Part shown: positions 1,120 to 37,226 of the stretch, in pieces
Numbering within the stretch: position 1 is the first letter of the stretch
Layout: each line of letters opens with the position of its first letter
Assembly: GCA_022813865.1 (NCBI GenBank)
Contig: JALDZX010000024.1
Span: 248,001 to 312,000 of the forward strand
DNA: 64,000 nucleotides
From: Xylographa opegraphella
Taxonomy: Eukaryota
Direction: 5' to 3'
Program-made: the position numbers and the translations under genes
The notes under the pieces: generated by a model
Seen by the model: the letters and a program-made list of their open reading frames with translations, nothing else
Databases searched by the model: none
What the model was told of the DNA's origin: nothing

Positions 1120-3839
1120 ATGCTGTTGCATCGAGGCAGAAACAGAGACGATAACGTTTCGAAATCACCAGGCCCGACTTTCATGAACGTTGAGCAAGTT
1201 GGTCAGCAATCTTTTGCTAATAGTGCTACTCGCAATTCTTCCCCTTTGAAATTTCTTTTATCTTCTCCGATTGAGCAGCCTGGCAAGATCAAACACTCAC
1301 AGGATACTTGGACAGCTGATTTTCTCACTGACCTACGATCGAAACGCCCCGCTCGGCCCAGCGGGGCACGGCCGCTACCAGTTCGACATGCTCATACAAC
1401 ACCCTTTCCAACCCTCGAACCGCCAGCTCGAACAGCATCCGCCTTGTCAAGGCCTTCGTACTCAATGATACAACCAGACCAGCTTGCTGGTCACTCTGAA
1501 GAAAGGTCGTCCAGTTCGATGTCTCATTGCAGGGCAAAATCTGCTTTGTCGATGCGGGAGCAAGTTGGCAGGCCTCTAGTGCAACAGCCTCTTGCACAGA
1601 TCGATCCCGATTTGACAATCGCGAGTTCTATTTCAGATGAAGCAATTGGTCCGAAGAAGGCGGCTGACACAGTAGTCAATGGGGCCTATATGGAGAGAGG
1701 TCATCGATGGATGGAGAAGCAAGAAGCTCGATCGTTAAGAGCTGCGCTGGAGGATATGGATCTCCGCGAAGAACAGCGGTTACATGCAGCTGCTCAGGAA
1801 GAGGCTACAAACATTATATGGAAGCATCGTAATGCTGGAGTACCATATCGAAACCCTGGAGGCCCTCGCGACTACAAGCAGCATCTCAGAAAAGGAAGCC
1901 ATGCCAGAAGCCAAAGTATTGAAAGGTATGGAGTGCTCGGGAAAATGAGCAATATATGTGGAACAGTCAACCGGTCAGCATCTGACGGTTCAACATCCAC
2001 AAAGAGTGGTGGCGACTCATCCGAACGGAGTCGAGAATCGAGTGGTTCTTGTCCAGATCGCCAAAAGCCTGACGATGCCGAGATTAAGAAATCTGCCTCT
2101 AGAAACGCAACAAAATGGGACTCCCCGGACAAGAAGGACTATACCAATCTCACCTGTTCAATACCGCCGGCCAAGATTTCCAATCGCCGAGCAAGCAGTG
2201 GACCAAGGACCAGAGCCACCGGCTTGACTGGACGGCCGAGTCTTTTCAGAAATCCCGAGGATCAAATATACGAAGAACCGGAGGAAATCGTGCCTCAAAT
2301 ATTGACAGACGATAAGACGATTGCTGAAACCAAACCGCTGAAGCCGACGAACAGAAACCCTAGCATAAGTGCGAAGGAACAAACAAACACCATAAGCAAA
2401 CTTACCTCTGTACCAATAGGTGAAGACAAAAAGTTTTCGCGATATGAAATACACAAAAACCCTCCTAGCAGATCAAGAGACCCGTCTTACCTGCAAAATT
2501 TTCTCACTGCGACTTCTCAAGGAATTACAGATGTTGTGCTTGTGGATACTGGAAATAACAAAACGCCAACAAAACACGGTATAGAGATTCGAAGTAATGA
2601 GATCCGGGAAGCTACAAGTATGCGTTTGAAGGATAGGAGTCCAAAATTGCCAACTCCGACTGTGGTTAGCGATCGTCCAGGACGACCAATAGTCAGCTTC
2701 GACCGTGACTACAAACCCAGAGAAGTTGAACTGCAACATGAGTCTTCGTTCTCCGAGCAACCCTCAAGCCGCAATGAAATGATTCAGCTCGAGTCTCACG
2801 CTGCACTGAAACCACAGCTTCCAGCTTCAGTCAATTCCGCGCCTCTGATACCAACCATCAACGTTCTCGAACCAACTGAAACCGAGGTCTGCAGGCAAGC
2901 TGATGATCCCACTATAAACTTTCCAGATGTTCCGTCAATTTCTATAACCCATTCTGAATATCCTGCCATAGTCTCTGACAATGTTGTGTCATCGGCTCGT
3001 CCGCTTCCTAAACCCATAAACGGAGGTCGGAGTACGCACGGTCATCGTCCCGGGCCTCACCACTCTGCTACAGCGCCAGTGACAGCTACAAAGTCTCACT
3101 GGACACCTGTCCTTCAAAGAGCCACAGCACAATGCGCCGCTTGTGCTCTTCCAATTTCTGGACGCATAGTAAGCGCAGCATCAAAGCGCTTTCATCCTGC
3201 ATGCTTTAGCTGCTTTCAGTGTGGAGAGTTACTCGAGTGTGTAGCATTCTACCCAGAACCAGATCACTTTCGTGACGCTCGCCTTGCTCGCATCAACGCG
3301 CGCCTTAACAATATGCTGATCCCTGACTGCGACGGCCATATCACTGAAGAGGATGATGGTGATGATGGACTCCGTTTCTACTGCCACTTAGACTTTCACG
3401 AAAAGTTTAGTCCTCGGTGCAGGTCTTGTAAAACGCCTATTGAAGGGGAGGTAGTGATTGCTTGTGGCGGTGAGTGGCATGTTGGGCATTTTTTCTGTGC
3501 TGAATGTGGCGACCCCTTCGACGCCAGCACACCGTTTGTTGAGAAAGATGGCTTCGCTTGGTGTGTAGATTGTCACAGCAGAAGGTTCAGCGGAAAGTGT
3601 GCGGGATGCAGGAAGCCAATCACGGACATGGTAGTAAAAGCGCTTGGCAAGGAATGGCATGAAAGATGTTTCTGTTGCAAGGTAAGGTTTTTTCTTGCTA
3701 ACGATGCGGCTCAAAATGCCTATTCTGACTTTTTCCTTAGGAATGTGGTGGAGAGTTCAAAGATGGTAGATTCTTTACCAGGGATGGCAGCGAGAAGCCG
3801 GTTTGCGTCAAGTGCGAAGAGACACGACTGAAGGCATGA
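1120..3839 (+). CDS. LIM-domain (paxillin-like) cytoskeletal adaptor
   Basis: Long S/P-rich N-terminus and three C-terminal LIM zinc fingers (CAACALPI..FHPACFSC, CRSCKTPI..WHVGHFFCAEC, CAGCRKPI..WHERCFCC). Intron 3682-3740, last exon ends at TGA 3837-3839; probable intron 1202-1315. Confidence 0.9.
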
Positions 3840-4591
3840 AGCAGACTGTTCAATACCGGTTCATTGTCGGGAAGGACTGTTGCATTCTCACCTTGAACTT
3901 TTGAATGATCGCAAAAATGTGCTGCGATTTCACGTAGAATGGCCATGTCTGAATGTCTCACGATTCTGAAGTCGCATTACGAGAATCTCCTTTGTATGTT
4001 CGTCAGATAAAATCAATATTAGGTCGTTACAAGCAATTACGAATACGCTTTCGTTAGCACGTACATCGTGACTGTTGCATAGCTGCTCAACCGGGCATGG
4101 AAATTCACATGATATAGGGCATATGTCATGTTTTGCCCCGGGCATTTTTATGTATAATTGGAAGATGAATTGTTTAGCATAATTGTGTCTTCCTGTACCA
4201 CTACTGCGTGAGACAACACCTGATCAGCGGAGGCGTTACGGATCCGTACTGATCGACGCCGGCGGTCATCTACTTTCACGCAGAGCTCCGAGCCCTCACT
4301 ACCTGGGTTATCGATAAATATCAACAGCGGCCATTGGCGCCGCTGAGCACATGAGATACCTTTCTATGGAAAAATTGTATCTTCAGCCTATCCGCAGTAT
4401 CCAATGCTGAAGAAGGAAGCTCCAGCCGCCTGGTCCAAATTTTGGTGATCCTAGGTGTTACGTAAGGCAAGTTAATCCCAACATCAGCGCTTATTGCCAC
4501 CCTCTCCAACTACATTCCATCCTGGAGTCAATGCTCACTTCGGTCATTGAAGGATGTAGGACTCAGCAGAGTTTATTTTTCCCTAGTGGCG

Positions 4592-6177
4592 ATGCTGAGG
4601 ATTGGTCGACCTCCTCATGCTCTTTTTCGGCGGCATGTGCGAGCTCTATGGCGTGCGCACACTATTTTGAGAGACTTCCATGCAACTAAGGACTTTGGAA
4701 TAGTGAAGCCGTTTATCCTTGCTGATATCGGTGAAGGTAAGCCGAGCAAGGTCCGTCAACAAGTTTACTCACTTATCTGGCCTCGAAGGTATCAAGGAAG
4801 TCCAGATCATACAGTGGTTTGTAGAGCCAGGAGCACGCGTGGAACAGTTCGATAAACTATGTGAAGTGCAGTCAGACAAGGCGGCAACAGAAGTAGGGTG
4901 CCCTGCTTGTTGGAAAGTTCGAAGGCCTTCATGTTGATATTAGGTTTAGATTACCTCACGCTTCGATGGAGTTATCAAGAAGCTCCACTATGAGGCAGAG
5001 GACATGGCTCAAGTTGGAAAAGTGAGAAAGACTTCTGCAGGCAGTACCGAAGATTTGCTGAGAAACGTAGCCGCTCTGTGATATAGACATTCAAGGAGAA
5101 ATTTCACCTGAAGACGAAGCTTTAATCACACCCTCTGCGGATCAGGCAGGAACGCCGTCAGACGCTCAACAGCCACAGAAAACTATCCCCCATGAGCTGA
5201 AAAATTCAGTGGAGCATCGGATTGGTGATCCGCTACCCAAACGAGCTGACCCAGGCGTGCATGCATCATTGGCTACCCCTGCTGTCCGAGGCCTGCTCAA
5301 AGAGCTAGCTGTCAAGATTGAAGACGTCGAAGGAACTGGTAAAGATGGCCGAGTTCTCAAGGATGACGTCCACAAGTTTGCAGCGGCTCGTGATTCACCT
5401 TCTCAGAGAATGAAGATACCTTCTGCCACTCCGAAGAGATCATCGGATAGTGGCTCTCAAAACGAGACTGTCATACAACTGACCCCTATTCAGTCTCACA
5501 TGTTTAAGACGATGACCAGATCATTGTCTATACCGCACTTTTTGTTCGCTGACGAGATCAACCTGAATGCTCTTGAGTCCCTGCGTGCCCGGCTCAACTC
5601 TTTGCCCTCAACAGCACGAAGACTTTCCTATCTTCCTTTCATCATCAAGGCAGTCTCTGTTGCTCTTAAAGACTTTCCTTTGCTCAATTCTCGAGTTGAA
5701 TATGACCCTGACATTAAAGGAGTTCCGCCACGTCTTGTTGTTAGAGAGAATCATAATATTGGTGTTGCTATGGACACGTCGCACGGTCTTTTGGTCCCCA
5801 ACATCAAGGATGTCGGAAGTCTATCTGTACCAGAGATCGCGGATCAGCTCAAGCACCTCCAGAACCTTGCTCAGGCATCGAAACTCAAAGCAAATGATCT
5901 TACTGGGGGTACCATCACGGTCAGCAACATCGGGAGCATTGGTGGAACCTACGTCGCACCAATCATTGTGCAAAGCGAGGTTGCTATTCTTGGCGTTGGG
6001 AGGGCAATGGTGGTACCGGCATTCGATAAGGAAGGAGGTATAGTGAAAAAGACAGTAGGGAACTTCAGTTGGAGTGCAGATCACCGGGTGGTTGACGGCG
6101 CCACAATGGCAAGGATGGCTGGTAGGGTAAGGGAGATGATTGAGGAACCAGGTATCATGCTCACAGCGCTGCGCTGA
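4592..6177 (+). CDS. DBT: Dihydrolipoamide branched-chain transacylase (E2 of branched-chain alpha-ketoacid dehydrogenase), mitochondrial
   Basis: Arg-rich presequence, lipoyl domain (LADIGEGI..EVQSDKA) split by three introns, E3-binding domain (ATPAVRGLLKE..GTGKDGRVLKDDV), catalytic WSADHRVVDGA. Confidence 0.95.
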
Positions 6178-6620
6178 GGCAATTTCGAGAACATAGACCC
6201 GAATGGCAACACGTTACAGAATGCCCACTCACTAACCTATTCCGTACGTTCATAGCAGCAATATACAATTCTTGAACACTTCCTCATCACTTTCCTCCTT
6301 CAAGCTCCATCACAACCACAACAACCAACATCGTTTGGCTTTGACAGTCGTTGCTGATGTCTTTGTGCTAGCTGTGCTCCTTCTCTTGCAATCACACATA
6401 GCTCCAAGACCCCGTGTGGTTTGTAGCTGGCTATATGTGCGCACTCAGTCCCAAATCACCATTTTCCGTGACTAACTAGTTAAACTGACAGCAATCTGTA
6501 TTCAAAGGGACCGCCCGTGTTCCTTACAATCTCTCCTTGCACTCAGCAGAGCCTGTGAGCAAATCCTCCACCTCCTATAAGCCTGCGCTATACGCGTCTG
6601 ACGGCCTCTAGCCGGCGCTT

Positions 6621-8373: not shown

Positions 8374-9715
8374 GCTTATGCTGTATCTTCTTCGGACGAC
8401 GGAGACGTGGCTCTTGCTGACGAGAGCGGATCAGCTTTGTTGTTTTTAATTTCATTTCTTTCTACACTGACGACGACTCGGCTTCTGCACGTCGAGCGCG
8501 CTCAGCCTCGTGTCTTCTCTGCGCTTACGATAGACATGGCCACCCATGAGCGGGGCTGAACACGAGCTTCTTTCCTCTTTGTTTACAGTCCTTTGACTGT
8601 CGCCCATGCTTGACGCTAGCCGTGCTACGATGCCTGTGTGTTTCTTTCGTGCCTTTCGATGCTATGGCGTTCGCCTTCCTTACGATTCAGACCATGTGAC
8701 TTGCACGAACTCGCTGTGCCCCGCCTGCGGACGGAGTAGAAACCATAAGAGATGGTAGAAGGGATCGTGCGTCTTCTCCTGCTACGAGGCTGCAGTGCCG
8801 GAATGGCACCGCGGCTGTCAAATGCATGGAAGAGGTAGATGGCTAAAATGATGGGGGGGGAAGACCATGGCCCGGAGATGGCGGGTGAGCGATCGGGCAG
8901 AGTTACGGGGTTTCCTAGCGACCACGATCATCGGAGTGAGGAGGGAGAGGAGTGGGTGGAGCCGCAGAAAAGGGCTGCTGGGGCAATGGAGCCGGACTAC
9001 AAGACGAGCAGAAAGTCTGTGAGGGATGAGAGGACGGGGGGGGGGGGAGGGGCGCAGCGGAGCTGGGAGCGGATGCCCATCACGATGGCTCTGCGAAACC
9101 GGAAGACGAGAATCACGGTGAGATGTGCTGCCGGCCGGGTGCTATCCTCGGCCACTGAATGGGTCGAACGCGGGCTTTTCGTCCTTCGTTGGATAGGTAA
9201 TTCGGTGTGTGGGCGAAGACGAGAGTCTCCTAGCGCTTGTGGGGGAGGTGAAGCGGTTGTTGTCTTTGGGATTCGTCGTGCGGGAGAGGATCATGATAGA
9301 GAGGCAACGTGAGCGGAATCTAACATGCGACCAGTGCGCTCCGAGCTGATCTCGCGAATTGGAGCAGCTACCTATGCTCAAATATGACATCGAGGTGAAA
9401 GCAGTTTGCTTTTTTTCTTGCATGGACGAGCGGATCTCGGCGATAAGCGTGATCGTAAATACGGGAGGACCCGCTGGGGTAATACACCCCCCCGACCCCG
9501 ACTACGTAGTCTACGTGTTCGAATATTGCCTATAATATATTTGAGAGCTGAGGCTTCGTACGCTTCGGGCCAATCGCCACGGAGAGCTTCACCATCTTGT
9601 TTATAGAAGTGGTACCTGAGATATAGAGACATAGACATAGACATAGGTCAGCTACGTTACATCTGTGGCGCAGGCGAATCTAATCCATCCGATCAGACTT
9701 TGCGGGCTGGACAGG

Positions 9716-10717
9716 ATGTCGACCGTGACGGAGTCGTTTACAGGACCAGCGGAGGTGCATTCCTTCGCCGGTCTGCTGTTCGACATGGACGGCACCCTCA
9801 TCGACTCGACCGAGGCGATCGTGAAGCACTGGCACAAGTCGGTCATCCCCCTCCCCCTTTGATTATTACAGGAGCATCGTCCCGGCAGTGCAGCCCAACT
9901 CACGAACGCCCGGCAGACTGGGTGCCGAACTCGGGGTCGACCCGCAAGTCATCCTCGCGACCTCGCACGGCCGCCGCTCCATCGACACCTTGAAGGTCTA
10001 CGACCCCGCCAAGGCCAACTGGGCGTGTAAGTGCTCCACCCCCCAACGCGCGACTCCACGATCCCCGTCCCTCCTCCGGGGTCCGGACTAACGCGCGGCA
10101 GACGTCCGCGAGGTGGAGGGCCGGATCCCGAAGGAATACGGTGCTGACGCGGTCGAGATACCCGGGGCTAGGAGCCTGCTGGATGCGCTGGACGCCGCCC
10201 ACGCGCCGTGGGCGATTGTGACTTCGGGCACTAGGCCGCTCATGGACGGCTGGCTCGCGGTCATGAAGCTGGCCGCCCCGAAACACAACGTTGTGGCCGA
10301 GGACGTGGCCGAGGGCAAGCCTCATCCAGCGTGTTATCAGCTGGGCAAGGCCCGATTGGGGTTGGGGCCGGGGGATCGTGCATTGGTCATCGAAGATGCG
10401 CCTGCGGGGGTAAGTCACAGACTCACAGGAGCAAAAGTGTTCGGAGTTTCGAGGCAGGTGGGGCCTGTTACAAGTTGCCTGTCTGGCAAGCTGCAACAGT
10501 TGGACGACACGACTAACTGCTCTCGGGGTTGTAGGTGCGAGCTGGGAAGGCAGCCGGATGTTCGGTGGTGGGGCTCACGACGACGCATCGCTTGGAGCAG
10601 ATCCGAGAAGCGGGGGCGGACTGGATCGTGAAGGACTTGCGGAGCGTGACATTCATCGGCACCGACGCGGTAAATGGGCTCGTTCGCATAGAACTGTGTG
10701 ACACGTGGGTCAGGTGA
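9716..10717 (+). CDS. GPP1: HAD-superfamily sugar/glycerol-phosphate phosphatase (Gpp1/Dog1-like)
   Basis: Motif I LLFDMDGTLIDST, SHGRRSID, WAIVTSGT, GKPHPACY, VIEDAPAG+VRAGKAAG across four exons with GT-AG introns. The family is secure; exact orthology is inferred. Confidence 0.85.
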
Positions 10718-13700
10718 GGGCAGCACCGACGCCCGTGGGAGGCAAGATCGCTCTCATCAGTCTCATCAGATGATTTACCTCTCCTCTCCCATTTGACGAG
10801 TGTACAGCAAGCAGTACGGAGTCATCACGGTGCATGTTGGTCGATGTGGAAAGGGCGAACTGGGAGGTTGAGGTATTATTCTTGGCTCGATGTGCAGTTG
10901 CATGCTGTAGAGGCCTTCGGTTGCATGCCGTGCATGTCGAACGAATTGTGATGACACTTCCGGGGTGACACGATGCCGCGATAGGGCTCCTCGTCAATAT
11001 TCTCCCGCTTGGGGCAAGGGCGGCCCGGGGGGGGCAGCAGCAGCGCGGTGATTCGCCCGGCGGCGGCACCGTCGTCCGCTCAAGTTCGACTGTCAGAAAC
11101 CCGACCACTTGTTTCCGGGACGATCCCATCCATCCCGGTCCATGTTTGGCTGGGGCCCAACCTCCTTCGTGGCGCTGCTCCAGCGAGCTGAGGCCAGCGG
11201 ACCCATTCTGCAGGCGCAAGGCAAGCGTGATTCTACACAGGAGCACCCTGGGAGGCGCAACGCAGGCCCGCATATATCGGGGCTCCCGATGGATGGTGCA
11301 GGGCTCCAAACATCCCAGGGCCCTCGTGACTGCTGTGTGTCCAGGCGTGCAGTCGACCGATCGTCCAAGAATAGTGTCGTCGTTGTTTCCCAGCCCAACG
11401 GGAAGCCCCCCATCGCATTGGGAATTCCGTCGGTGATAACGGAAAGCCTGGCATATAGATTAAGATTCGGAATCGGAACTGGAACTGCAATTATTGTTGG
11501 TGAGTAATCTGACTATCACCTCTGTGCGACCTGCTTGTACGACCCCTTCGGCCCTTCGGGTGGTGCCAGGCCCCGTCGCGTGCTGACCATCGCTTGGCTG
11601 GTCCCGAGTCGAGTCCCGGTTTGCGACGAGTCGACGACAACCAGGACGACAACGATAACAACAGCTAAACGAGGTCCAAGACATTCCAGACTCGAGTTGA
11701 GCCAGCACCGTTGTTCCGCGCGAACCAGAGCCAATCGACAACGGCGGTGGAGTACGGCCGGTCATCACTCGACTCAACTCCCATCCTCCCACGACTGGCC
11801 AGTTTCAGGGAAAAGCAAAGGCCGAGGAGGAAGGTGCATACAGTGGAGTCGCAACTAAGGTAGGTTTTTAGTGGCAGATCCAGCAGCATGCCCCAACACC
11901 GATCGCTCGCTCACCTACGTCCAAAGCTACCAGACCTTTGTTAACGTATGCGGGGCTCGTTTGGAAGCTAGCTGCAGGTACGCTGTTACACAAAAGTCAC
12001 CACTCATACAACCGAGACACCGCTTGCCAGCGAGATTACTAATACCTTTTATCTTAGGTACTCTCACGCCCGGAGGACAGTGCGGCCGGGAAAAGGGGCG
12101 AGTGAGTGGGAACAGCAAGCGGACGTCCGACATCGCGGGTACACGCATCAGGGACACACTCGACATTCAAGTACTTGGACACGCAGGCCTCCCTGCATCA
12201 CCGCAGCTTGTCCGTGGACGCACTGTCCATCGAAGAAGAATGTCTTAGATGGCCGACAGCGTCTCTGCATCGTCACGCCATGCACTCCCGTATCATTATT
12301 GTGGTCGCCAGGGCCGTGATTTCCTTTGCTCTGCGAAGGGGGTTGAGTGGTGAACAAAACCTCATCTGCCGCGGGGAGAATGGGCAAGTGGGCGAATCGC
12401 CGCCAACCACAAGCACGCGCATCCTGGACAGTCTCGAACGTGTTTTGCGACCGGGCATGCTAGCGGCCCTTGGGTGTGCTTCAGCCATCAGCATCCCCCT
12501 ATTTCGATCCCCTTTCGCCTTTTTGCCTCGAGCCCGCGCCCGCGCCCTCGACCGCCTTCGGCCATGGCTTTAGCGCATGTGAGTCGAAGTTGGCAATGGA
12601 GGGGATGATCGGTGCCGGGGCCCTTCCTCTTCCGTTGACTCGGCGGTGATCCCGATCCTTTTCGAGATTCCCCCTCCCAGAGTCCACACCTTATTCCACG
12701 TGGGACGCGGCCCATGCTTTTCGCGGCGAGCAAGGGGATCGCTGGTGAGTTTTCGTGGTCGATCTGCCTTTGCCGCAGGTCCAGTCAGCACGAAACGACT
12801 GGAAGGTGACGATACGATGGAAGTCTCCGTCATCACAGCATGCCTTGGATGTTGAGGGCCGGCTGGAAAGCATGTCTCTGCCAGGCTGAAAGGTTAAACG
12901 GAGGGACGGACACACTGCCGCCACCCATGCCCTGCCTTGCTTGCCACTGACCGCCATCCACTGTAATCTGGACGAACCCGGCGCGAATGCTCACACTTCG
13001 TCTCGCACGTCTTTCAGCGCGCGACAACAGCAGCCGTCACAGTGGTGGAAGCACCCAAGGAACGGGTAGAGCCACACAGCAGCCGTAGCAGGTGGGGGGA
13101 GAGGGGAAGAGGATTTGTGTGGGAAGGGGTCGGGTGTCGAGAGCTTCCGCCTTGTGCGACACAACAGCGGGCGCCAGTGCAGGGGGGCTAGGCTGCTAGA
13201 GTCTCCCCCCTCCCCCCCCCATGGAGCCTGTTCCTGCCCTCCTGCTTTATTACCTCGAGCTCCAAGCGAGATGATGTGTTCGCACTTGGCCGCACTTGCT
13301 CGCTCTCTCTTCTTGCTGATGGAAGATGGACAAAGTAACGCTTTCGACAAGTAATGGCCCCGCGCTACGGCAACGCTGCTGTGTTACTTCGTCGGTCATA
13401 GCGAAGTTGCGAAATACTTCGCTGCCTCCGACTGGAACATTAACCCTATCCTTATTCGCCAGTATTCCGTAGTGGGACCTCGAATAATCCCACCATCCCC
13501 CCCCTCGCCCCCAAACCCCCCAGTCCGCGCCCTTGCTAGCTGTCCTTAGCACGCAATGATTCTCATTCTCGTCCTGGGTACGATACCAGCCAAGTTATCG
13601 TGGCGACGATGCGATGATGTGATGCACTTCGGACGGCGGATACCCCCCTGGTGTACAACGAAGGCGGCTCGGACCCGATGGCTGGCTGGTGGGTGCGACC

Positions 13701-19803: not shown

Positions 19804-21565
19804 ATGGTCAAACCTGGAAGTGAGGGGAGCCAAGCACTATCCCTCATGCAATCTATGCTGACGACAAGGTTAGAGCCCAAGTCCAAGCGGACGCCAGTAC
19901 GATTGCGCCACAAGATCGAGAAAGCGAGTGCTGCAAAGCAACGGAAACAGCGCAAGATCTCGAAAGCTGTAAGAGCAAATATATGGAGCCCTTGCTACGA
20001 TGAACATTTTACTGAGTGTCTTCCTATAGAATCCAGAGTGGCGTTCGCGATTGAAGAAAGATCCGGGAATACCCAATCTCTTTCCTTATAAAGACCGCAT
20101 ACTACATGAAATTGAGGAGAAGAAAAGACTGAAAGAAGAAGAATTTACAAGGAAGCGAGACGAGGCAAGAGCAGCTAAGAAGGTACCCGGTACTTCTGCC
20201 CCAGAAGATGAGGAGGATATGGAAGTAGAAGAGCTAGCTACGGAGGATGAACTCATTGACGATGAGGAGGCAATGGACACAGATCAGCCCGATGACTCTT
20301 CGAATCCGATGGCTGCTCTCCTTGCCTCAGCAAAAGCTCAAGCTGCTGAGTACGAAGAGATGTCAGACGACGACTCTGAAGATTCTACAGACCATCATCG
20401 TCCTACACACGTCCCTTCCACAAAACCTCAATCTCTCGACTCCTCCCGCCGAGCCTTCAACAAAACATTCGACGCTGTGCTTGATGCATCCGATGTTCTT
20501 TTATACGTTCTCGATGCACGCGATCCAAACGGGTCCCGCTCCCGTGCCACAGAACGCCAGATCGCTTCTTTCGCTGGTGGCTCTAAACGCCTGATTCTCA
20601 TCCTCAACAAGATCGACCTTGTTCCTCCACGCATTCTCAAGACCTGGCTTGTCTACCTCCGCCGCTACTTTCCCACACTTCCTCTCCGCGCCAGCAACCC
20701 TGCTCCTAACGCAAAAACATTCGACCACAAAGCTCTCACCCGAAAAGCCACCTCGGAAACCCTGCTGCGCGCTCTTAAGTCGTACGTGGCGGCGCAAAAC
20801 CTCAAGCGCGCTGTCACCGTCGGTGTTGTCGGCTACCCCAACGTTGGCAAATCCTCGGTCATCAATGCTCTGACCTCCTGCCTGGGGGGCAAGCACTCCT
20901 CTCGAAACAGCAGCACCGCCTGCCCTGTCGGCGCCGAGGCCGGTGTCACAACCACCATGCGGGAAGTAAAGCTCGATAACAAGCTCAAACTACTCGACTG
21001 CCCTGGAATCGTCTTCCCCTCTGCCACCGCCCATCCCGCATCTACCTCCTCGGCCGCGAACGCCCATCTCCATCTCCTTTCCGCTCTCCCACCGTCCGCT
21101 ATCACAGACCCCGTCCCCGCCATCTCCCTCCTCCTCTCCCGTCTGCGCGCCCATTCCGACCAAACACTCCTCTCCGATCTGTACGCCACGTACAACCTCC
21201 CTCCACTCATGTCCTCTCGCACCGCTGACGGTGCCGGAGACGTCACTACAGACTTCTTAGTCCAGGTGGCGCGCAAGCGTGGCCGTTTGGGCAAAGGTGG
21301 CGTGCCCAACTTGAACAGTGCGGCGATGGGGGTGCTGGGCGATTGGCGCGACGGGCGGGTCAGGGGCTGGGTGGAGGCGCCGGTGCTGAAGGTTGTGGGT
21401 ACGGGCAAAGCGAGTGGTGAGGTGGAGATGCTGGATGAGGGAGTGCCGGAGGAGGAGGAGGTTGGAGATCGAAAAGAGATCGTGGCGGCGTGGGGAAAGG
21501 AATTTAAGTTAGAGGGCTTATGGGGAGGGGGAAACGAGGAGGTGGGGGAGGAGATGGTGGAGTGA
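19804..21565 (+). CDS. NUG1: Nuclear GTP-binding protein for 60S biogenesis (Nug1/Grn1/GNL3 family)
   Basis: Basic N-terminus (KSKRTPVRLRHKIEK..KKDPGIPNLFPYK), circularly permuted GTPase motifs DARDP, LNKIDL, GYPNVGKSS, DCPG, and RGRLGKGGVPN; two 5' introns. Confidence 0.95.
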
Positions 21566-28325: not shown

Positions 28326-30421
28326 AGATCTCCCGCGCTCCGGAGAGATATTCGAGACGAGACTATTGACGTTTATGAGTTTCCTGCAATCTAGAATATC
28401 GATGTGAAGTGGATCGGTGCATCAAGGTTTTGGATTCCTTAGCGTCAGCTGCGTGAGGTAATCTGTTCAATCTGGTCCATCTTGGCTTGTGATCTTGGGT
28501 CATGATATGTTTAGAGTCTGAATGCATAGTGCTTTCCTTTCAATTATGCAAATAAATCTTCTGCCAATGCCGCTTCCAGTGAGCTGTCCATACTTTGCCG
28601 CCCGGAATTGATGCACACTAAGATTTGCATTTATATACTTTGCTTCTGTTCACAACAGGGTTTACGTCCGAGCCTTTCTAGCGATCCTTGGTATCTTCTC
28701 TGCCAATCTAGTATGAGGTGTTTCGAGTTCGGTATGCAGATACAAAAGTTTCGATTACTCCACCACTTATTAATCCGACCAGGATTCATGGTTCCTTGCG
28801 CCTTTGGGTATGAAATCCAATCTATGTATCTTCAGAATCCTTACATCCAAAGTCGATGGTGACTCAACTGTACTTAACTTTGACCTTGGAAGAGCCTAAA
28901 CTGCTGCGTGGGACGACTGCATGGCTGGCGGGGTGAGCTTTGCAATGGTTTCATGCCAAAATGTGATCCTTATTCTCATCAGCGTTTAATGTTTGCATCA
29001 TTTTACCAAACTCAATGTCACAAACAGCCTGCTCGAGCTTCGAAGTCAATTGCTATCTCTGTCAAAACTTCTCAAGGCTGCCAGCCTCAATGGCTAATAC
29101 AAGTTTAAGTTCGTGATCGTTCTGCACGTGTGATCTGAGTCTTGCATCATTCTCATACATAAAAAGGCTCCAATTCCCAACTTCCTTTTTCTTCGCACAC
29201 AAATCTCCTGACTTTCTCCACAGCTTACAAGTCCAGTCGTTCCGCCTCATCTATCTCTTTCATCGTAAGCACAATTCAATCTTCCTCCCTTCACTTTACC
29301 AATTATTATACTAACTGTCTCTTTACACCTATTACACTCCCACTGTTTTCATTTGCACCTCTAGGCCGCACTCGGACGTACACCAGCGTCTATACGTTTC
29401 CTACTGGATGAGCGCCCCTATGCCGCTCTTGGATAACCAACCTGTGTCTATCAATTTTGCACTGGCATCTTCCTCGATCTGGACTGGAACGTCCGTTGAT
29501 CTAGGCTAGGAACTTCTCCAACTGAAGCTGGACTTCATTACCCCTGAATTGGACTTCCGTAGATCTGGACTGGATTCTCTATCGACGGGCTCAAATAGCA
29601 TGAACACCACTCGAAGATGACCAAACCAAAGGGAGGTGTTTCGAGGCTAACGAACAATTCATCTATAGTAAGCCTAGCCCTCCAATATTAGATAAATCTA
29701 AATTGTTTATTTTCAAAATTGACTACTTCTCCAAAACGGATTTCTGTTCCTTGCGTCTTCAAGCCACAACTTCGTCAGCATCAGCTTGATTCGGTTCACC
29801 GGCGCCCCTAAGCCGCATACCGATGGACTCGAGACCAGCTTCTACGTTACTGAATCGCGGCCCGAATACCAAACCTTGATCAGTGGGGAGGCATCTTAAG
29901 GCCAGCACAAGAGAAAGCAACAGTAAGCATCCCTTACTTTTATACAAAATCTGGCGCTGACCACCTCGTATGTACTGATTACTTCACTGACATCCAATTA
30001 CCATATACTATTTCAAGTCAGCTACTTGGACATGATATATGATCATCCACCCTCATGCCATCCACCACTCTCATATAGCCGCAGTATAACCTCTAGCACT
30101 TGGACTCTCATCCCCTTCTAGCATTATTCCCTTCCCGAATCGAGAGCGTGTTCGAAATCTGTTTGCTGACATTAACTGGTCTACATTGTTATTATCCGCC
30201 AGCTTATTATAGGGCTGGAATTATGAATCGTGATGGAGTGGGTAAAGCGTGCGAGGTGGCCGAGGGTGGGGGCAGTAGTGGAAGATAGCATTGTGTGGGT
30301 GGTGATGGAGCTGAATGCCTCTGATGGGAGCGATGCAGAGGTGGGTAACGTCCAGCGTTATAGCGGTCGTTTTGGCATTTCCATACAGTTTGACCATTAT
30401 TTGCAATTAGGGGTTCACTTA

Positions 30422-30462
30422 ACGTCCCTCCCTGCATAGCGAGACACCCTCCGTGCCGAGAC
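30422..30462 (+). repeat. Left terminal inverted repeat
   Basis: acgtccctccctgcatagcgagacaccctccgtgccgagac, preceded by TA. Confidence 0.95.
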
Positions 30463-31338
30463 GGATGAGTGGTACTTCGACTTTGAGCAACTCGATATCC
30501 TTGCACACGATAAGATTCGCTGCAGTTCGGAGTAACTTACGTGCCATGACTCTCTATAAACACCTTAGGCCTCTCTTGCGTAAAAATTACCTCTGCATCG
30601 TTGCCTTCACGCATAAGTTACAAACAGCCTTCTTTGTACGCGTAATAATGTCCCTTCATTGCAGCAATACATATGAGCTTATACTATTAGATACACCTAC
30701 CAAGAACTGTTCTCCTGCAGTCAGAGTCCTATAATCGCGCGGAAAGCCATAATCTGGCTCGCGTCCGTCACGAGGCCTGTGTTCATGCAAGATCGCGACG
30801 TCGATCGGTACCTCGGCTACTGCCGTGCAGCCCCATACCTTTCTACGTAATCATCGTGTTGTAATTTACTTGCCGTGGCTGACAGATTTGTGGCTTTGCG
30901 GTTTGGAAGCAGGCGTTCGCATAGCCCCGGTTTTGAATAACAGTCTAAAAAGTCAACGCTATACTCTGCTAGCAAACAGAGCATGACTATATTAATTTCA
31001 ATTTTCCTATTCCTTCCGATCACCAAACAGCTTGCGGCACTTCAATAACGATAGGCTTAACTCGTCCCAGGATTCTCAGTGCGCAGTCCATAGGCTACCC
31101 GTAGAGTGAGCGATATTATGGATGTCTCTGTGAACTGTGGCTGTCTTTGCCATATGACGGCGAGCCTGCGCCACGAATGCAGCTTCGTGTGCAGCGCCCT
31201 CTACCACCAGGCAGTCTTTTCGTGAGCAACACATCTTTCCGTCGATGCTTGAGATATAGGTTTTGCACCAATATGCTCAACGTGTTACTCAAGTAGCGTC
31301 TGTCCGAGAACGTGTCTACCCGCTCCTTATGCCTCACG

Positions 31339-33853
31339 ATGCGCCTCTTGGAGCGCAAACCTAACGGCGACCTCGTCTTTCGCGAATTCACTGATAAAGA
31401 CGTCCCAGCCTACGCAATCCTCTCTCATACTTGGTTAGCAAACAATAACGAAGAGGTTAGCTTTCAAGATGTAGAGGCGGACACCGGCAAGAGCAAGGCT
31501 GGGTGGGGGAAGATACAGTTCTGCGCGGACAAGGCTGTAGCTGATGGTCTTCGATACTTCTGGGTAGATACCTGCTGCATTGATAAAAAGAATAGCACAG
31601 AGCTCTCTAAAGCTATCAACTCCATGTTCCGCTGGTATCAGAAGGCTGCTCGGTGTTATGTCTATCTCATAGATGTCTCGGCATATGATGGCAAAGAGAC
31701 GCCTCAGCAATACGTCTTTCGTTGGGAGGCGACCTTCAGGAAAAGCCGATGGTTTATGCGAGGTTGGACGCTTCAGGAGTTGCTTGCACCCACATCAGTG
31801 GACTTCTTCAGCTTAGAGGGCGAGCGATTGGGTAGCAAGCTATCATTGGAGATCATTATCCACGACATTACCGGCATTCCAAGGCCAGCTTTAAGAGGAA
31901 AGCCTTTAGATGGCTTTGGCCGTGATGAGCGGATGTCTTGGGCATCACACCGGCAAACCAAGGAAGAAGAAGATCAAGTCTATTCCTTACTTGGCATTTT
32001 CGACGTTTCCATGCCGCTCATCTATGGAGAAGGGAAGGAGAAGGCTTATAAACGACTCCAGGAAGGGACTGAAAAGATCTACAAGGGTAGGTACTCTTGA
32101 TTCAAACACTTACCGACCGATGGAGCTGACCGAACTAGAGGATGATTCCGATCAATTTGCCGTCGGTTTCGATCTTTTAGCCGTTCCCGAAGCTGCGCAA
32201 TTCGTTGCAAGAGAGAACGAGCTAGCCGAGATGCGCCGGTTGTTGCACGGCCACAAGTCTCGATCGGCTGTCGTTCTTCATGGTCTGGGAGGGATCGGAA
32301 AGACTCAGCTGGCCATTGAATATATCACACGGCATAAGGATAAATATACGGCGGTCTTCTGGTTTGAATGCAAATGATGAGGATTCTCTTAAGTTAGGTT
32401 TTCGAGATATCGCCCAACGTGTCCTCGAGGACCAGAAGGACAAGCCTTCCACCAGTATGCTTGCCAGCGTGGACTTGAATGAAAACCTCGATCAAATAGT
32501 TACGACAGTTAAGACCTGGTTTAACCTCCAAAGAAACACGCGGTGGCTGATAATCTATGACAACTACGACAACCCCCGGACACCTGGCAATCTCGACCAC
32601 TCGGCATTCAATATACGCGGATTCCTCCCCCGAGCTGATCACGGTTCGATTATCATTACGACAAGATCGGCCAAAGTCAGTCAGGGTCATCGCATCCACG
32701 TTCAGAAGTTGCCAAATATTCACGAAGGCCTTGAGATTCTTTCAAACACGTCCAAACGGGAGAATATCGAAAACAGTAGGTTATTTAAGAAATAAAGATA
32801 TAGTTTTAAGCGACGCTGATCAAAACAGACTGTAATGCTATAGCGCTAGTTAAAGAACTAGACGGCCTGCCTCTTGCTCTTTCTGCGGCTGGTGCGTATT
32901 TGGAACACGTGACCACGAGTTTCTCGGATTATCTTCGGCTTTATAAGGCGTCGTGGTTGAAGCTTCAGATGACGAGCCCACAATCAAGTTCCTATGAGGA
33001 TCGCTCACTGTACACGACATGGCAGATCACCTTCGATAGGATCGAACAACAGAATGCTGCATCAGCCAAATTGCTTAAGTTGTGGGCATATTTTAATAAA
33101 CAGGACGTGTGGTTCGAACTCCTTCGATATACAAATTCCGCGGACGATAAATGGATACAGCATCTCGCTGAGGACGAATTAAACTTCGACGAGGCCGTTG
33201 CGCTGCTGTGCAGCTTTGGACTGGTTAATATAGACCGGTCTCTTCAGCAGCAGTTCGCGTCTAAAAGATACAGTGTGCACAGCTGTGTACACTCGTGGAC
33301 GGTGTTTGTACTTAATAAGAAGTGGGATGAGGGCTTAGCAAGGCTGGCCTTAACTTGCGTAGCCTCATCCGTTCCTAGCACAAATGAAAAGGACTGGTGG
33401 CTCTTTCAACAACGACTCCTTCAACACGCGACACGACAGGACCTCTTTATAGTGGATGGCAAGGTAGATATAAAGGGACTGGATTGGGTCTTTCATAACC
33501 TGGGCAATCTTTACTTCCATCAAGGTAAGCTGGCCGAGGCGAAGAAGATGTACATTCGAGCGCTGCAAGGCAAGGAGGAGGCATTTGGACCGGACCACAC
33601 ATCGACACTTGATACGGTCAACAACCTAGGCATTCTTTACTCCGATCAAGGCAAGCTGGCCGAGGCGGAGAAGATGTACATTCGAGCGCTGCAAGGCTAC
33701 GAAGAAGCACTTGGACCGGACCACACATCGACACTTGATACGGTCAACAACCTAGGCATTCTTTACAAGAATCAAGGCAAGCTGGCCGAGGCGGAAAAGA
33801 TGTATATTCGAGCGCTGCAGGGCTACGAGCACGCCCTCGAGCATCTACTTTAA
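31339..33853 (+). pseudogene. Fungal NLR: HET domain - NB-ARC - TPR repeats; one +1 frameshift (true lesion or sequence error)
   Basis: HET motifs YAILSHTW, YFWVDTCCIDK, AINSMFRWY, SRWFMRGWTLQELLAP. NB-ARC Walker A GLGGIGKTQLA, Walker B WLIIYDNYD, IIITTR, DGLPLAL. Then 42-aa TPRs. Introns 32087-32138 and 32776-32828; extra T in the TTT run at 32363-32365. Confidence 0.92.
33494..33853 (+). repeat. 126-bp (42-aa) TPR coding repeats, about 2.8 copies
   Basis: Units start at 33494, 33620 and 33746; consensus NNLGILYxxQGKLAEAEKMYIRALQGYEEALGPDHTSTLDTV with near-identical DNA. Confidence 0.95.
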
Positions 33854-33883
33854 CATGTTCTTATGAAACCTACGCAACTCCTT

Positions 33884-35708
33884 CTAATACATTCGCGCCA
33901 CTGGTGCCCTCCATGACTCTAGAACCTTGCTCACCCGTGTCACTTCAGTCTCTGTCTCTGGCACACCCTGCTCTGGCTCAGCACTCTGGCGCTTACGACT
34001 GCGTTTTTTCTTGCCCGAGGATGTTTTCTCTTTCACAGCACGTTTCGCTTGTGCCTCCTCGAGGTCCTTATAGCTCATCACCTTTGCCTTTCCTAGGACC
34101 ACTGACCTTGTCGACCGGCGAACTTTGGCTTCGTTGTTTATTTTGACCAAGAATTGATTTTGATTCTTGAGGAGGGCACATTCGGCAAAAGATACTCGAG
34201 CAGCACTTGCAAGCTTCTGTACGTGCTTCTGTAGGCGCTGTTTTCTTATTTTATCAAGCGTATGAGCGTCCTGTTTGATCAAATTATGCAATAGTATAAG
34301 AGCCTCTGCTGTAATTGGTGTTACGGGTGTTTGCGGTACCTCGTCTTGCGCATAAAGAACGACCGCTACCTTATCGGCTCTTGATATGGTCAGCTAAGCT
34401 GGGGGCTTCGGTGTATCTCTAAGTACTCTCCCTGGGTTAAATGGAAACAAACCGGTTGCGGCCCAGCCGGCCTGGATGTTCCTCTTGTTTATACAGAGAA
34501 GTAAAATGCTCTTTGCCGACTGTATACACGCCTCCTCGATTTAGCCGTTCCACCTGGTCACGATAGGCTGTCTTCAGGGGGGCAAAGGGTCCGACGTCAC
34601 AGGGCTGGAGCTTGTGGGAGGTGTGAGATGGGAGACGGCACAGAATAATGTTATTTGCAAGGCAAAACTCCAGGATCTCCAGCGTTTCGTGTGTCCCAAA
34701 GTCATCGCAGATAAGCACTCGTGGTCTCCTGTTAGCCAGTCCTTTGGTTTGAGGATCAAAAACACGCTTCTGTCACTCTAAGCTGATCTTTGAGTCATTG
34801 TATCACTTTTCAGAATGTCCATAATGCCATCCAGGGGTTGGGTAAGTGGTCCAGTTGCTTCGGTGGGTTGCAGCTGGCCAGATTATCAGAGGTAGCAGCG
34901 ACCTACCGTCAGCGCTTATACACTCGATTGCAGTCACCATGGTGCGCTTAAAACCCGCGCCTCTATAGTCCCGGAAATCATCCTTACCCACAAGGACTTT
35001 CACGGAGCCAAGCTTGCTTAGCATGACTCCCGTTTCGTCCATGTTGTAAACATTGTCTGGTAGTACAGCTGGATCCTGTAAGACCATGCTAACCATCTGG
35101 AACCACTCTACGATCTTATCATATATATTATTCTCGTATCGTTTCCAATCGATCGCCCTGACTCTTCTCGCCCTGACTCTTCTCGCCCTGACTCTTCTCG
35201 CCCTGACTCTTCTCGCCCTGACTCTTCTCGCCCTGACTCTTCTCGCCCTGACTCTTCTCGCCCTGACTCTTCTCGCCCTGACTCTTCTCGCCCTGACTCT
35301 TCTCGCCCTGACTCTTCTCGCCCTGACTCTTCTCGCCCTGACTCTTCTCGCCCTAAGTGTGGGATGGCGTTTCTCGAAGACCCGAGCCCAGTTTTTGCCT
35401 GAAGGCTTGATTGGTTTATTCGTTGCGGACTGCCGGCGGGCGATACTAAAAGCTAGTGAAGGTATAACCTTTTTTCGCACAGGGTGCCCAAGACTAGACA
35501 GTAGTAACAAAAACTTAATCATCGCTTTCTCTTCCTCTGGAGTAAGGTATTGTTGGCGTTGGGCCTTTGCTTCTTTTGACTCTCGACCACGATAACGATG
35601 TTGGAGAGTAGAGTGAGAGACACCGCTCTTGTCTGCTAGGGCACGGTATGATCTAGATTTCTCGTCTGCACAAAGAACTTTCGCCAGCACCTGGCTGGCT
35701 CGGTCCAT
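33884..35708 (-). pseudogene. pogo/Fot1-like transposase (HTH + CENP-B-type HTH + DDE_1), inactivated
   Basis: YLTPEEEKA, GKNWARVFEKRH, YNMDETG, LICD(D)FGTH, LPSHTSHKLQPCDVGPF (35 residues between 2nd and 3rd Asp). Stops at 34803-34805, 34773-34775 and 34394-34396; frameshift near 34490. Confidence 0.93.
35154..35354. repeat. Perfect 15-bp minisatellite x13 inside the transposase, encoding (RARRV)13
   Basis: cgccctgactcttct repeated with no mismatch over 201 bp. Confidence 0.97.
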
Positions 35709-36224
35709 AATAAATGAAGTAAGAATGCGCAGTTACGAGCAACAGTGAGCGCGCACTCTGCCGCTCCGGTCTGCTCCCAAAATAGCCTACACGTGACATC
35801 CATAGAAAGTTCGAGAAGAACGCCACAATTAGATGCATCTAGCATAGTGTAGAATATGATACAGTATTATTAAGCGCACTAAGTTTGTCTGTCAAGACTT
35901 ATAATCCACCTCCTGGTCCGGACAAACTCGGAGTATACACTTTTATTATCTAAGTGTCTTCAAAATAAAGGGCAAGATTCTGTGATAATAGGACTGTCGT
36001 TAAAAGAAACCGAGATTCGAAATTATGTGGATGGGCATAGTAAAGTAGGGGTGTAAAGCTGAAATCGGTTTAAATGCTGTAAATAGAACGAGCGATAACA
36101 TGACCAGCGTCGCTGTTATTTTCTTGCTGTAAGCTTGATTTTCAAGGACGAATGTTTAAAGAATAATATTATGTTAAACGTAACCTTAAATTTCGACGAG
36201 GGAGGGAGTTTAAAGAGTCGGTGT

Positions 36225-36265
36225 GTCTCGGCACGGAGGGTGTCTCGCTACGCAGGGAGGGACGT
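36225..36265 (-). repeat. Right terminal inverted repeat
   Basis: gtctcggcacggagggtgtctcgctacgcagggagggacgt followed by TA; reverse complement of 30422-30462 except C36251 versus A30436. Confidence 0.95.
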
Positions 36266-36430
36266 TACGGGAACTGTTCGCTGGAACCCCGCTAAGACTT
36301 GGCACTAAGACGACGTAACTGCTCCGCTAATGGCCCACTAATAACCATTTGACGTTGAGGAGTATTGGTCAGTCTTTCCACTCTATTTTGTCCCCTCCCA
36401 GCTTCCAACATCAAAGAAGACACCCATATA

Positions 36431-37226
36431 ATGACCACCACTACCATCGCCGCAATATCTTCCTCCGATTCCTCCAACGCTTTCACCTTTCCGCCTTCAC
36501 ACTCTTACCCTCCCTTCTGGACACTGCAACCCACCCTCTCCACCCGCGCCGCCCAATTTCGCAAATGGGCTGCCCTCATCCTGGCCTACTGCCGACATCA
36601 GCGCCTCTTCTCTCTGACTCTTACCGACGCGCTCCAAACGCCTCTATTCCATAACAGCACTCTCCACAAGCGTCTTACGCTGGGCGAGGCCCGCGAGGTG
36701 ATCGACTGGATGTGCTCGAAAGGTGGGGACGGGCGCGCCGAGTGGATAGGAGCAGGAGAGGGGCGGAGCAAAGAGAGGGCGTGGATCTGGTGGCGGTCTG
36801 TGGAGGAGTGGGGGGAGGGGATACGGGAGTGGGTGCGTAGGACATATCCTGTTGTTTTTTGGTGCATGCGCGAGGGAATTGCAAGGACTTAATGGCTTTG
36901 GACGAAATCCCGGAATTGAAACGTCCGCTGACATCTTTTCCGGTATAGGTGGAGGCCACGGGCCAGAAGAACACAGTCCTTACACTATACGAGCTCACTG
37001 AGGGCGAAAGCACAGTCGATCAAGGTACCACCTCCCTAGACATGCGCCCACAGCCACCATCTACTCTCACAACCCTTCACCTAGGGGCGATCCATCTTAC
37101 TAACTGCCCGTAGACTTCCATGGTCTCGACTCGGAGGTGCTACAGCGCGCGCTAGCGGTGCTGGTGAAGCGTGGCAAGGCGCAGGTGTTTGGCAGCGCAG
37201 ACGAACAGGGAGTGAAGTTCTTCTAG
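36431..37226 (+). CDS. VPS25: ESCRT-II subunit Vps25
   Basis: FTFPPSHSYPPFWTLQP..KWAALILAYCRH..LFHNSTLHKRL..WIWWRS|VEATGQKNTVLTLYEL..|FHGLD..GVKFF*; two introns. Confidence 0.95.

Follow-up and report, generated by a model that had tools for sequence, protein, structure and literature searches.

The question raised by this locus is whether a NOD-like receptor (NLR) gene that lies between two terminal inverted repeats (TIRs) is a genuine passenger of a small DNA transposon or only appears to be bracketed by it. The locus is found in a 64-kb window of Xylographa opegraphella (64,000 nt; GenBank assembly GCA_022813865.1, contig JALDZX010000024.1, forward-strand positions 248,001 to 312,000), the window being the whole stretch of DNA that was analysed and the source of all positions given below. 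Our analysis indicates that the element is genuine: a pogo/Fot1 transposon, now decayed, which carries an NLR as cargo. The history that we consider probable is that window 30422-36265 constitutes one dead pogo/Fot1-type element of the Tc1/mariner superfamily, whose NLR passenger was captured elsewhere and which moved in as a unit and then decayed. As for the outline of the element, its TIRs are 41 nt long and identical at 40 of 41 positions, with an A/G mismatch at position 15; each is directly abutted on its outer side by TA, and their outer edges span 5844 bp. A scan of the window with the TIR 27-mer that allowed up to 3 mismatches found exactly 2 occurrences and no third TIR copy, with a mean of 0.00 matches in 100 shuffles. 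No inverted repeat between the element ends was found beyond the 41-nt TIR. Inside are two convergent genes, an NLR gene on the plus strand that is preceded by an 876-bp spacer (30463-31338) and a transposase gene on the minus strand that is preceded by 516 bp, with the stop codons of the two genes only 30 bp apart. The distance from the transposase stop to the 3' tip of the element is 3462 nt, and the NLR gene lies within it.

The possibility that the two TIRs come from separate adjacent elements was tested by comparison with related elements. Metagenome contigs were scanned with P0002, the closest intact transposase, which gave 598 matching stretches, 365 of which encode a relative; the best 80 are referred to as loci L001 to L080. 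Alignment of 13 family ends showed that there are two subterminal kinds, a 5' kind and a 3' kind, the latter having the motif GGTACTTTGAC about 50-60 nt from the tip. In this alignment the left end of the window element is of the 3' kind and the right end is of the 5' kind. Specifically, the left 245 bp exhibit 66-67% identity to the 3' ends of L023, L015 and L018 (E 6e-14 to 8e-6) and 70-76% to that of L028, and the transposase together with its 5' leader and the right TIR is 80-92% identical at the nucleotide level to L001 and L022. The window TIRs also align with the TIRs of L006, L008, L002, L022, L023, L026, L028 and L010. In every transposase alignment homology runs out 0-2 nt beyond the stop codon, save for a short motif shared in the 3' untranslated region (3'UTR), and the end of homology places the cargo/transposon junction at about 33835-33860. 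There is thus one 5' end and one 3' end in the correct mutual orientation, each running into transposon-internal sequence, which indicates that both ends belong to one element of the pogo/Fot1 family. Given that the left 245 bp represent the family 3' subterminal region, the cargo is located between the transposase 3'UTR and the 3' end.

The cargo gene starts with an ATG at 31339, ends with a stop codon at 33851-33853 and has the domain order HET, NB-ARC, TPR. Pfam detects HET (PF06985, 1e-11) and TPR_10 (2.7e-36), with AAA_16 and ATPase_2 falling below their cut-offs on a short piece. The gene also has the Walker A motif GLGGIGKT, is colinear with Chaetothyriales proteins carrying PF00931, and contains three 126-nt TPR_10 units in exon 3 that the repeat finder places at 33497-33874. 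By architecture this is an NLR of the HET-NB-ARC-TPR class, with a reading frame that is not intact. A 1-nt insertion in the T-run at 32363-32365 leads to a premature TGA at 32375-32377, after which homology resumes in the next frame; the pieces around it align to residues 251-324 and 325-461 of P0363 with zero residues lost. The same 1-nt insertion is present, with 0 differences, in a contig of sequencing run X1, which is possibly the source of the window. The gene is also cut at its C-terminus, which reads ...YEHALEHLL after the three TPR units and falls about 100 residues short of the full-length relatives P0363, P0131 and P0133. That this truncation is shared with P0130, a 751-residue protein ending at the same TPR phase, was considered and rejected, as P0363 of the same species is full length. 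The presence of introns and of about 670 bp of upstream DNA in a gene that is colinear with its homologs indicates that the NLR was taken up as genomic DNA.

The transposase gene is in a comparable state of decay. Two of its pieces match DDE_1 (1e-14 and 8e-4), its N-terminal region matches HTH_Tnp_Tc5 (2.3e-5; 24.7 bits against a cut-off of 22.2), and a match to HTH_psq is weak (0.0079, below its cut-off). The predicted catalytic motifs NMDETG, CDDFG and QPCDVG can still be read in this broken gene, 35 residues separating the second catalytic Asp from the third (DD35D), and the natural C-terminus ...WRAPVARMY is kept, being the same in 5 of 5 homologs read. Its lesions include in-frame TGA codons at 34805-34803 and 34775-34773, a TAG at 34396-34394 and, relative to L001, a 23-nt deletion near 34488. 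A further peculiarity is an array of 15-nt units of which relatives, including L001, have a single copy, such that the window transposase has 12 extra copies amounting to 180 extra nt. Relative to L001, its closest metagenome relative at 91.6% nucleotide identity, substitutions are skewed, with 71 G>A or C>T versus 34 A>G or T>C. Although its motifs are present, the transposase gene is broken and, like the NLR gene, is a pseudogene; thus the element is a fossil and not a working cassette.

Much of what a first-pass annotation of the window had described holds at this level. The shuffle control and the coordinates agree with its 41-bp TIRs with 1 mismatch, TA outside and 5844 bp bracketed; Pfam, motif spacing and the end alignment agree with two convergent genes, a HET-NB-ARC-TPR gene on the plus strand and a DD35D pogo/Fot1 transposase on the minus strand, between ACGT-starting TIRs with TA flanks; its spacers of about 880 and 515 bp were measured at 876 and 516 bp; and its two spliceosomal introns in the cargo are GTAGGT..AG introns of 52 and 53 nt. 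What it missed is that neither gene is intact, the NLR being frameshifted and C-terminally cut and the transposase carrying stops and a deletion. Its suggestion that the NLR was captured at the DNA level as internal cargo is supported by the introns, by the colinearity and by the transposon sequence on either side. The features of the element are collected in Table 1.

Table 1. Features of the NLR-carrying element, in window coordinates.
Feature	Position	Strand	Basis or remark
TA at left (3') end	30420..30421	.	Presumed half of a TA target-site duplication
Left TIR (3'-end TIR in transposase orientation)	30422..30462	+	40/41 nt match to right TIR
3' subterminal region including TIR; family 3'-end motif GGTACTTCGAC at 30471-30481	30422..30666	-	Similarity to 3' ends of relatives
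Cargo segment of about 3.2 kb, borders approximate: about 670 bp of upstream DNA and 3'-truncated NLR gene	30667..33855	+	Lies between transposon-homologous stretches
NLR exon 1, HET domain	31339..32086	+	PF06985 1e-11; 80% identity to Exophiala xenobiotica P0130
NLR intron 1, GTAGGT..CTGAC..AG, 52 nt	32087..32138	+	Sequence reading; frame change agrees with colinear homologs
NLR exon 2, N-terminal part of NB-ARC with Walker A, frameshifted	32139..32775	+	Pfam, homolog alignment
NLR intron 2, GTAGGT..CTGAT..AG, 53 nt	32776..32828	+	Sequence reading, homolog alignment
NLR exon 3, remaining NB-ARC, linker, TPR_10 units	32829..33853	+	Pfam, repeat finder, homolog alignment
Transposase 3'UTR remnant, motif GGAGTTGCGTAGGTTT common to L001 and L022	33856..33883	-	Tail comparison
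pogo/Fot1 transposase pseudogene, ATG 35708, stop 33886-33884	33884..35708	-	Pfam, motifs, relatives
In-frame 15-nt tandem array, perfect, (RRVRA)n, 13 copies	35153..35354	-	Repeat finding, alignment
Transposon 5' leader	35709..36224	-	80-85% nucleotide identity to L001 and L022
Right TIR (5'-end TIR)	36225..36265	-	Alignment of family ends
TA at right end	36266..36267	.	Sequence

Two minor observations concern the edges and spacers of the element. The host flanks are partly palindromic (30413-30421 GTTCACT-TA ... TA-CGGGAAC 36266-36274, 7/9 complementary), which is why the repeat finder reported 50-nt arms; this palindrome may reflect chance or target preference. The ORFs (open reading frames) in the NLR-side spacer, at 30423-30734 and 31116-31409, have no Pfam match even at E up to 1.

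We next consider where the two genes come from. The HET exon shows 80% identity to Exophiala xenobiotica, 79% to Cladophialophora immunda, 78% to Fonsecaea erecta, 73% to E. spinifera and 70% to a Chaetothyriales sp., as well as 74% to Lepidopterella, with the best Xylographa protein at 60%. The other NLR pieces are 68-88% identical to five Chaetothyriales proteins; a Xylographa soralifera protein reaches 31% and 23% in two of these pieces and has no match to the third. In a tree of 40 rows, obtained by a quick search and including one gappy row, the window NLR falls in one clade with five Chaetothyriales sequences and one from Lepidopterella (SH-aLRT 99), inside which it groups with the Chaetothyriales rows (94). 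Over 671 columns the window NLR is 81% identical to E. xenobiotica. This is far above the 57-65% observed between classes for the housekeeping protein NUG1, indicating that the NLR looks horizontally acquired and is apparently foreign to the host lineage. The transposase is 80-84% identical at the amino acid level to annotated proteins of Pleosporales (Bipolaris, Alternaria, Pyrenophora, Curvularia), and the protein cluster of L001 includes a fragment labelled Cenococcum geophilum. The transposase thus seems to group with copies from Dothideomycete-like sources, so that both genes look horizontally acquired and would have come from different sources.

The surrounding DNA is that of a Xylographa host. 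NUG1 (ORF 20030-21562) has an identical counterpart (100%) at NCBI under the label Xylographa opegraphella and shows 90-91% identity to the proteins of three other Xylographa species, with only the 57-65% mentioned above to proteins of other classes. Other genes in the window code for LIM, 2-oxoacid dehydrogenase E2, HAD, ceramidase, VPS25/ESCRT-II and BRCT proteins, as well as a sugar transporter, a mitochondrial carrier and a Foie-gras/Gryzun protein. When the 22 large ORFs of the window were compared with Pfam, all matches were to housekeeping families and no Starship-type captain gene appeared, in keeping with the housekeeping neighbourhood that had been proposed earlier. The right end of the element lies 164 bp before the ATG of the VPS25 (ESCRT-II) ORF at 36431 and therefore within the promoter or leader of that gene.

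Evidence for the integration itself was obtained from the sequencing runs, for which X1 was compared along with X2 and X3, two other organisms of the same study, at a likeness threshold of 80%. One X1 contig covers the left flank and the TIR and continues to 32878 with zero differences, extending another 19 kb to the left, a second contig runs from within the right TIR out into the right flank, and depth is even across both junctions at 153-179. This indicates that integration of the element at the host locus is real. No second copy of the NLR stretch at 30517-32833 was found in X1 at a likeness of at least 80%. Two X1 contigs match up to 36267 and then diverge, indicating that other TIR-ended copies exist, although one of these could be the left end of this element reversed. 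In X3 many contigs are 80-90% like the transposase and right end (window 33827-36474); five of them end at 36267, beyond which their flanks differ, and the interval 30186-31509 is covered by none.

Relatives with and without cargo were both observed. No cargo is present in L015 and L018, where the stop codon is 0.69 kb away from the tip; the two are 89% identical up to the tip, and their flanks diverge straight after TIR and TA. Near cargo-free relatives would be about 3 kb long, the 0.69 kb having been measured and the remainder estimated, whereas distant members (L031-L077, about 30% identity) are TA-flanked elements of 1.83-1.89 kb. The statement in the first-pass annotation that pogo/Fot1 elements are normally about 2 kb thus applies to the distant members and apparently not to the near ones. 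Cargo-bearing relatives have 2.3-6.5 kb between stop codon and 3' tip. For example, L006 and L007, which are 99.96% identical over 15.7 kb, represent a TA-flanked 7568-bp element containing a transposase, an alpha/beta-hydrolase-like ORF (its PGAP1/DUF676 matches, with E of roughly 5e-4 to 2e-3, are weak and fall short of the cut-off) and a region similar to NB-ARC in which DUF7779 and TPR_10 are detected. The pair L003 and L004 (99.8% identical in their overlap) has the same gene order at 87-91% nucleotide identity, so that transposase and cargo are in common with L006/L007, but it has a different upstream flank; the outermost 246 bp are missing from this copy. A second example is L023, where a PNP_UDP-NACHT-winged-helix-ankyrin gene lies between the conserved 3'UTR and the family 3' end, with the tip at 8547 followed by TA and 6.5 kb from stop to tip. 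L026 has a transposase and TIR 87-93% identical to those of L023 and a 2.8-kb interior that differs from it. A third is L009, which is the same as L010, a 5925-bp TA-flanked element with an intact transposase between a DUF7587 ORF and a kinase-like ORF. NLR-type genes are also found 0.5-3.5 kb past the transposase, with no intervening 3' TIR, in L019 (HET-NACHT-WD40), L027 (HET-NACHT) and L012 (HET, ankyrin), contigs that end before any 3' end. The NLRs of L019 and L027 are homologous (68-73% nucleotide identity) and their transposases are 75% identical. Overall the NLR-linked loci are scattered on the transposase tree and do not form one clade.

Several further features of these relatives deserve mention. 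At 702-728 of L023 there is a second family TIR in right-end orientation abutting a transposase that is 5'-truncated (it starts at residue 114), which suggests nesting, with one family member inserted within a second. The cargo ORFs of L010, DUF7587 (1.2e-22) and kinase-like (Pkinase 6.5e-6, below cut-off), are located at 6002-6475 and 9377-10210, both on the minus strand, and its element sits within a 65-nt perfect inverted repeat of the flanks (5029-5093 and 11202-11266). CHAT (caspase-like) ORFs lie just past the right ends of L006 (14665-15693) and L010 (11339-11812). The distant locus L075 (30% identity; coordinates 11-2569, minus, and 3134-4417, plus) adjoins DNA in which tblastn matches to a hydrolase-like ORF, NB-ARC and TPR occur in order on the opposite strand, and TIRs were not found at L075. 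No meaningful Pfam family was detected in the 2.8-kb interior of L026 or in the unknown ORFs of L011 and L012. Repeat finding gave no TIR pairs in the short contigs L001, L022, L019, L027, L002, L004 and L026, which end too early, and 3' ends were not found for L008, L020, L025, L012, L014, L024 and L028.

As a rough control for the association between NLRs and this transposon clade, 121 NLR proteins were compared by tblastn with the 80 loci, giving matches in 12. Matches located 3' of the transposase were found in 6 of 26 distinct near-clade loci (6/16 with at least 1.5 kb downstream) and in 0 of 51 far-clade loci (0/11 with at least 1.5 kb downstream). The difference between 6/16 and 0/11 gives a one-sided Fisher p of about 0.03, computed by hand, and the far-clade upstream flanks have 3 NLR matches in 75 kb. 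This enrichment is modest and the statistic alone is weak; the argument is carried by the TIR-delimited cases.

These observations are consistent with the following sequence of events. The NLR would have been captured in another genome, given that the NLR is Chaetothyriales-like and the transposase Dothideomycete-like. A transposase of the family would then have acted on the two TIRs and brought the 5.8-kb unit into a TA located 164 bp ahead of the VPS25 ORF in a Xylographa genome, after which both genes would have decayed. As to the route of capture, one guess is gap-repair copying into the 3' region, where the window element is without about 400 nt of the canonical 3' region, and another is use of the end of a second element, as in the L006 composite. 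Any benefit of the NLR or HET module to the element would likewise be a guess. The simplest account is that the NLR arrived together with the element, since it is apparently foreign to the host and has a single copy in X1. The first-pass annotation had also proposed that the NLR moved with the element; the loaded relatives and the foreign single-copy NLR favour such a joint arrival, with movement as a unit being what we infer from them. Its description of a compact mobile immunity cassette is accurate as to a compact NLR-carrying element and inaccurate as to function, both genes being broken and not working. A search of other family copies for transposase plus NLR, which it had recommended, found among the metagenome contigs other types of NLR in the same place and not this NLR.

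A number of points weigh against this history. With both genes broken, present activity cannot be claimed. The window NLR is in none of the 80 metagenome loci, the best match being L019 with 57% amino acid identity in the HET domain, and no second copy of the exact NLR-bearing element was found, as it is single-copy in X1 and absent from those loci. The closest transposase relatives, L001 and L022, are unlike the window in the 200-338 nt available past the stop codon. No empty site was recovered, the X2 and X3 contigs not covering the flanks at 80% likeness, and the TA pair is uninformative alone because every end of such elements abuts TA; TA is also next to ends at L006, L010, L015, L018, L023 and L026. 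The right end of L006 is an inverted copy of its own 5' end (84% over about 500 bp), and L006 may therefore be a composite of two elements. Upstream of near-clade transposases there are 2 NLR matches in 49 kb versus 6 in 82 kb downstream, which is no clear difference, and the source organisms may be rich in NLRs and transposons alike. Finally, the transfer inference depends on database sampling. The GC content at third codon positions (GC3) of the cargo is 0.55, a value within the 0.42-0.73 spanned by the host, and GC3 was rejected as uninformative on foreign origin.

One alternative is that a cargo-free element inserted first and that gap repair or ectopic recombination later copied an NLR fragment into it on the spot, using a copy at another place in the Xylographa genome, such that the NLR never travelled. 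No second loaded copy is known, an internal replacement is the product expected of gap repair, and the roughly 400 nt missing from the canonical 0.69-kb 3' region are missing at the cargo position. However, X1 contains no donor copy at a likeness of at least 80%, the NLR groups with Chaetothyriales and not with any Lecanoromycete protein found, and the differing cargo that relatives have at this position suggests persistence and spread of loaded elements; we thus regard later local copying as unlikely. It is a little harder still to attribute the association to insertion preference, meaning that members of this clade insert beside NLR genes or in NLR- or repeat-rich regions without carrying them and that the window represents a one-off capture. 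NLR-like DNA does occur outside elements, upstream at L008 and L015 and just outside the TIRs at L037 and L053, and downstream and upstream NLR rates are not clearly different. Yet the NLR is inside the element ends in the window, in L006/L007 and in L023, there is no 3' TIR between transposase and NLR in L019, L023 and L027, and L003 plus L004 repeat the L006 cargo at 87-91% identity, so that insertion preference appears improbable as an explanation.

That two family elements flank a resident NLR, with their inner ends deleted and their outer TIRs only seeming to bracket one unit, is a very improbable arrangement. Two like-oriented insertions would be needed, as would two deletions that left the NLR untouched, and the arrangement does not sit well with ends that are one 5' and one 3' with TIRs identical at 40 of 41 nt, with an NLR that is not native-like or with the lack of inner TIR remnants. 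Nested or adjacent family copies do exist (L023 702-728, L028), the right end of L006 is an inverted 5' end, and TA flanks say nothing on pairing, which is what can be said in its favour. A single element that arrived with its NLR already on board and subsequently decayed is therefore the history that we prefer.

The window element is one example of a wider cargo habit in this transposon clade. A broader proposal, which we put forward tentatively and as something close to an open bet, is that there is an undescribed lineage of small (3-8 kb) pogo/Fot1 transposons whose 3' cargo bay has repeatedly been occupied by varied NLR-type genes and which has moved these genes within and between fungal classes, forming a second route of NLR mobility that is independent of Starships; the NLR or HET module would possibly aid persistence. 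The cargo architectures in such a lineage would comprise HET-NB-ARC-TPR, a hydrolase-like ORF plus NB-ARC-TPR, PNP_UDP-NACHT-ankyrin and HET-NACHT-WD40. If true, this would provide a second route for NLR mobility and for patchy NLR distribution. Compared with Starships, a DDE transposon of a few kb with entire NLR genes on board would be a far simpler vehicle and probably a commoner one, and would offer a concrete mechanism for NLR presence/absence polymorphism, domain-architecture shuffling and cross-class transfer. The element observed here, which brings together a Chaetothyriales-like NLR and a Dothideomycete-like transposase in a Lecanoromycete, also offers a model in which cargo capture can be tested for Tc1/mariner-type elements, generally regarded as carrying a transposase alone.

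How does this element compare with known systems? Fot1/pogo-type transposons of Ascomycota, which include Fot1, Pot2, Flipper and Molly, resemble the window element in having a DDE_1 DD35D transposase with an HTH_Tnp_Tc5 N-terminus, ACGT-starting TIRs and TA on either side. The window element departs from their compact, transposase-only habit in being 5.8 kb long with a second, unrelated gene in its 3' region. Its cargo resembles fungal HET-NB-ARC-TPR NLRs, an architecture class reportedly described by Dyrka et al. in 2014, in the order HET, NB-ARC, TPR_10/12 and in its colinearity with Chaetothyriales members, to which its individual pieces are 74-88% identical, but this copy is frameshifted, lacks about 100 C-terminal residues and is inside a transposon. 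In plants, Pack-type transposons such as Pack-MULE contain small fragments and usually have no transposase. The window element is like them in having intron-bearing host DNA between TIRs, in DNA-level capture and in a gene cut at one end, and it is unlike them in having a near-complete gene plus upstream DNA beside its own transposase. We found no published description of a pogo/Fot1 or other Tc1/mariner element carrying an NLR in a literature search that had supplements and subscription journals outside its reach.

Carriage of NLRs by fungal mobile elements is itself known. Fungal NLR repertoires are described as having fast turnover and a patchy distribution that is linked to transposon-rich flanks (PMC13449251) and also to capture by giant Starships (bioRxiv 10.1101/2025.11.25.690456). 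NLR-carrying Starships are also reportedly covered by Gluck-Thaler et al. (2022; PMC9156397). In the above preprint, the Starship Tangerine of the lichen-forming Xanthoria carries an NLR that has relatives in Chaetothyriales, with Exophiala xenobiotica named. Tangerine and the window element are alike in being mobile elements of lichen fungi with an NLR passenger, with Chaetothyriales relatives that include Exophiala xenobiotica in both cases and with a signal of transfer. In contrast, Starships range from tens to hundreds of kb in length and encode at their 5' end a tyrosine recombinase, the captain (DUF3435), whereas the window element has a DDE transposase, 41-bp TIRs and a length of 5.8 kb. 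With no captain-like ORF in the window and a length of 5.8 kb, the element does not qualify as a Starship; its earlier characterization as far smaller than Starships is accurate. ToxhAT is reported to be a 14-kb TIR-bounded class II transposon that carries ToxA and is implicated in transfer between fungal species (PMC6737239). Among small fungal TIR transposons with cargo it comes nearest to the window element, in that both are short DNA transposons bounded by TIRs and hold a passenger gene of relevance to the host; it differs in belonging to another transposon family, in having an effector instead of an NLR as cargo and in being larger.

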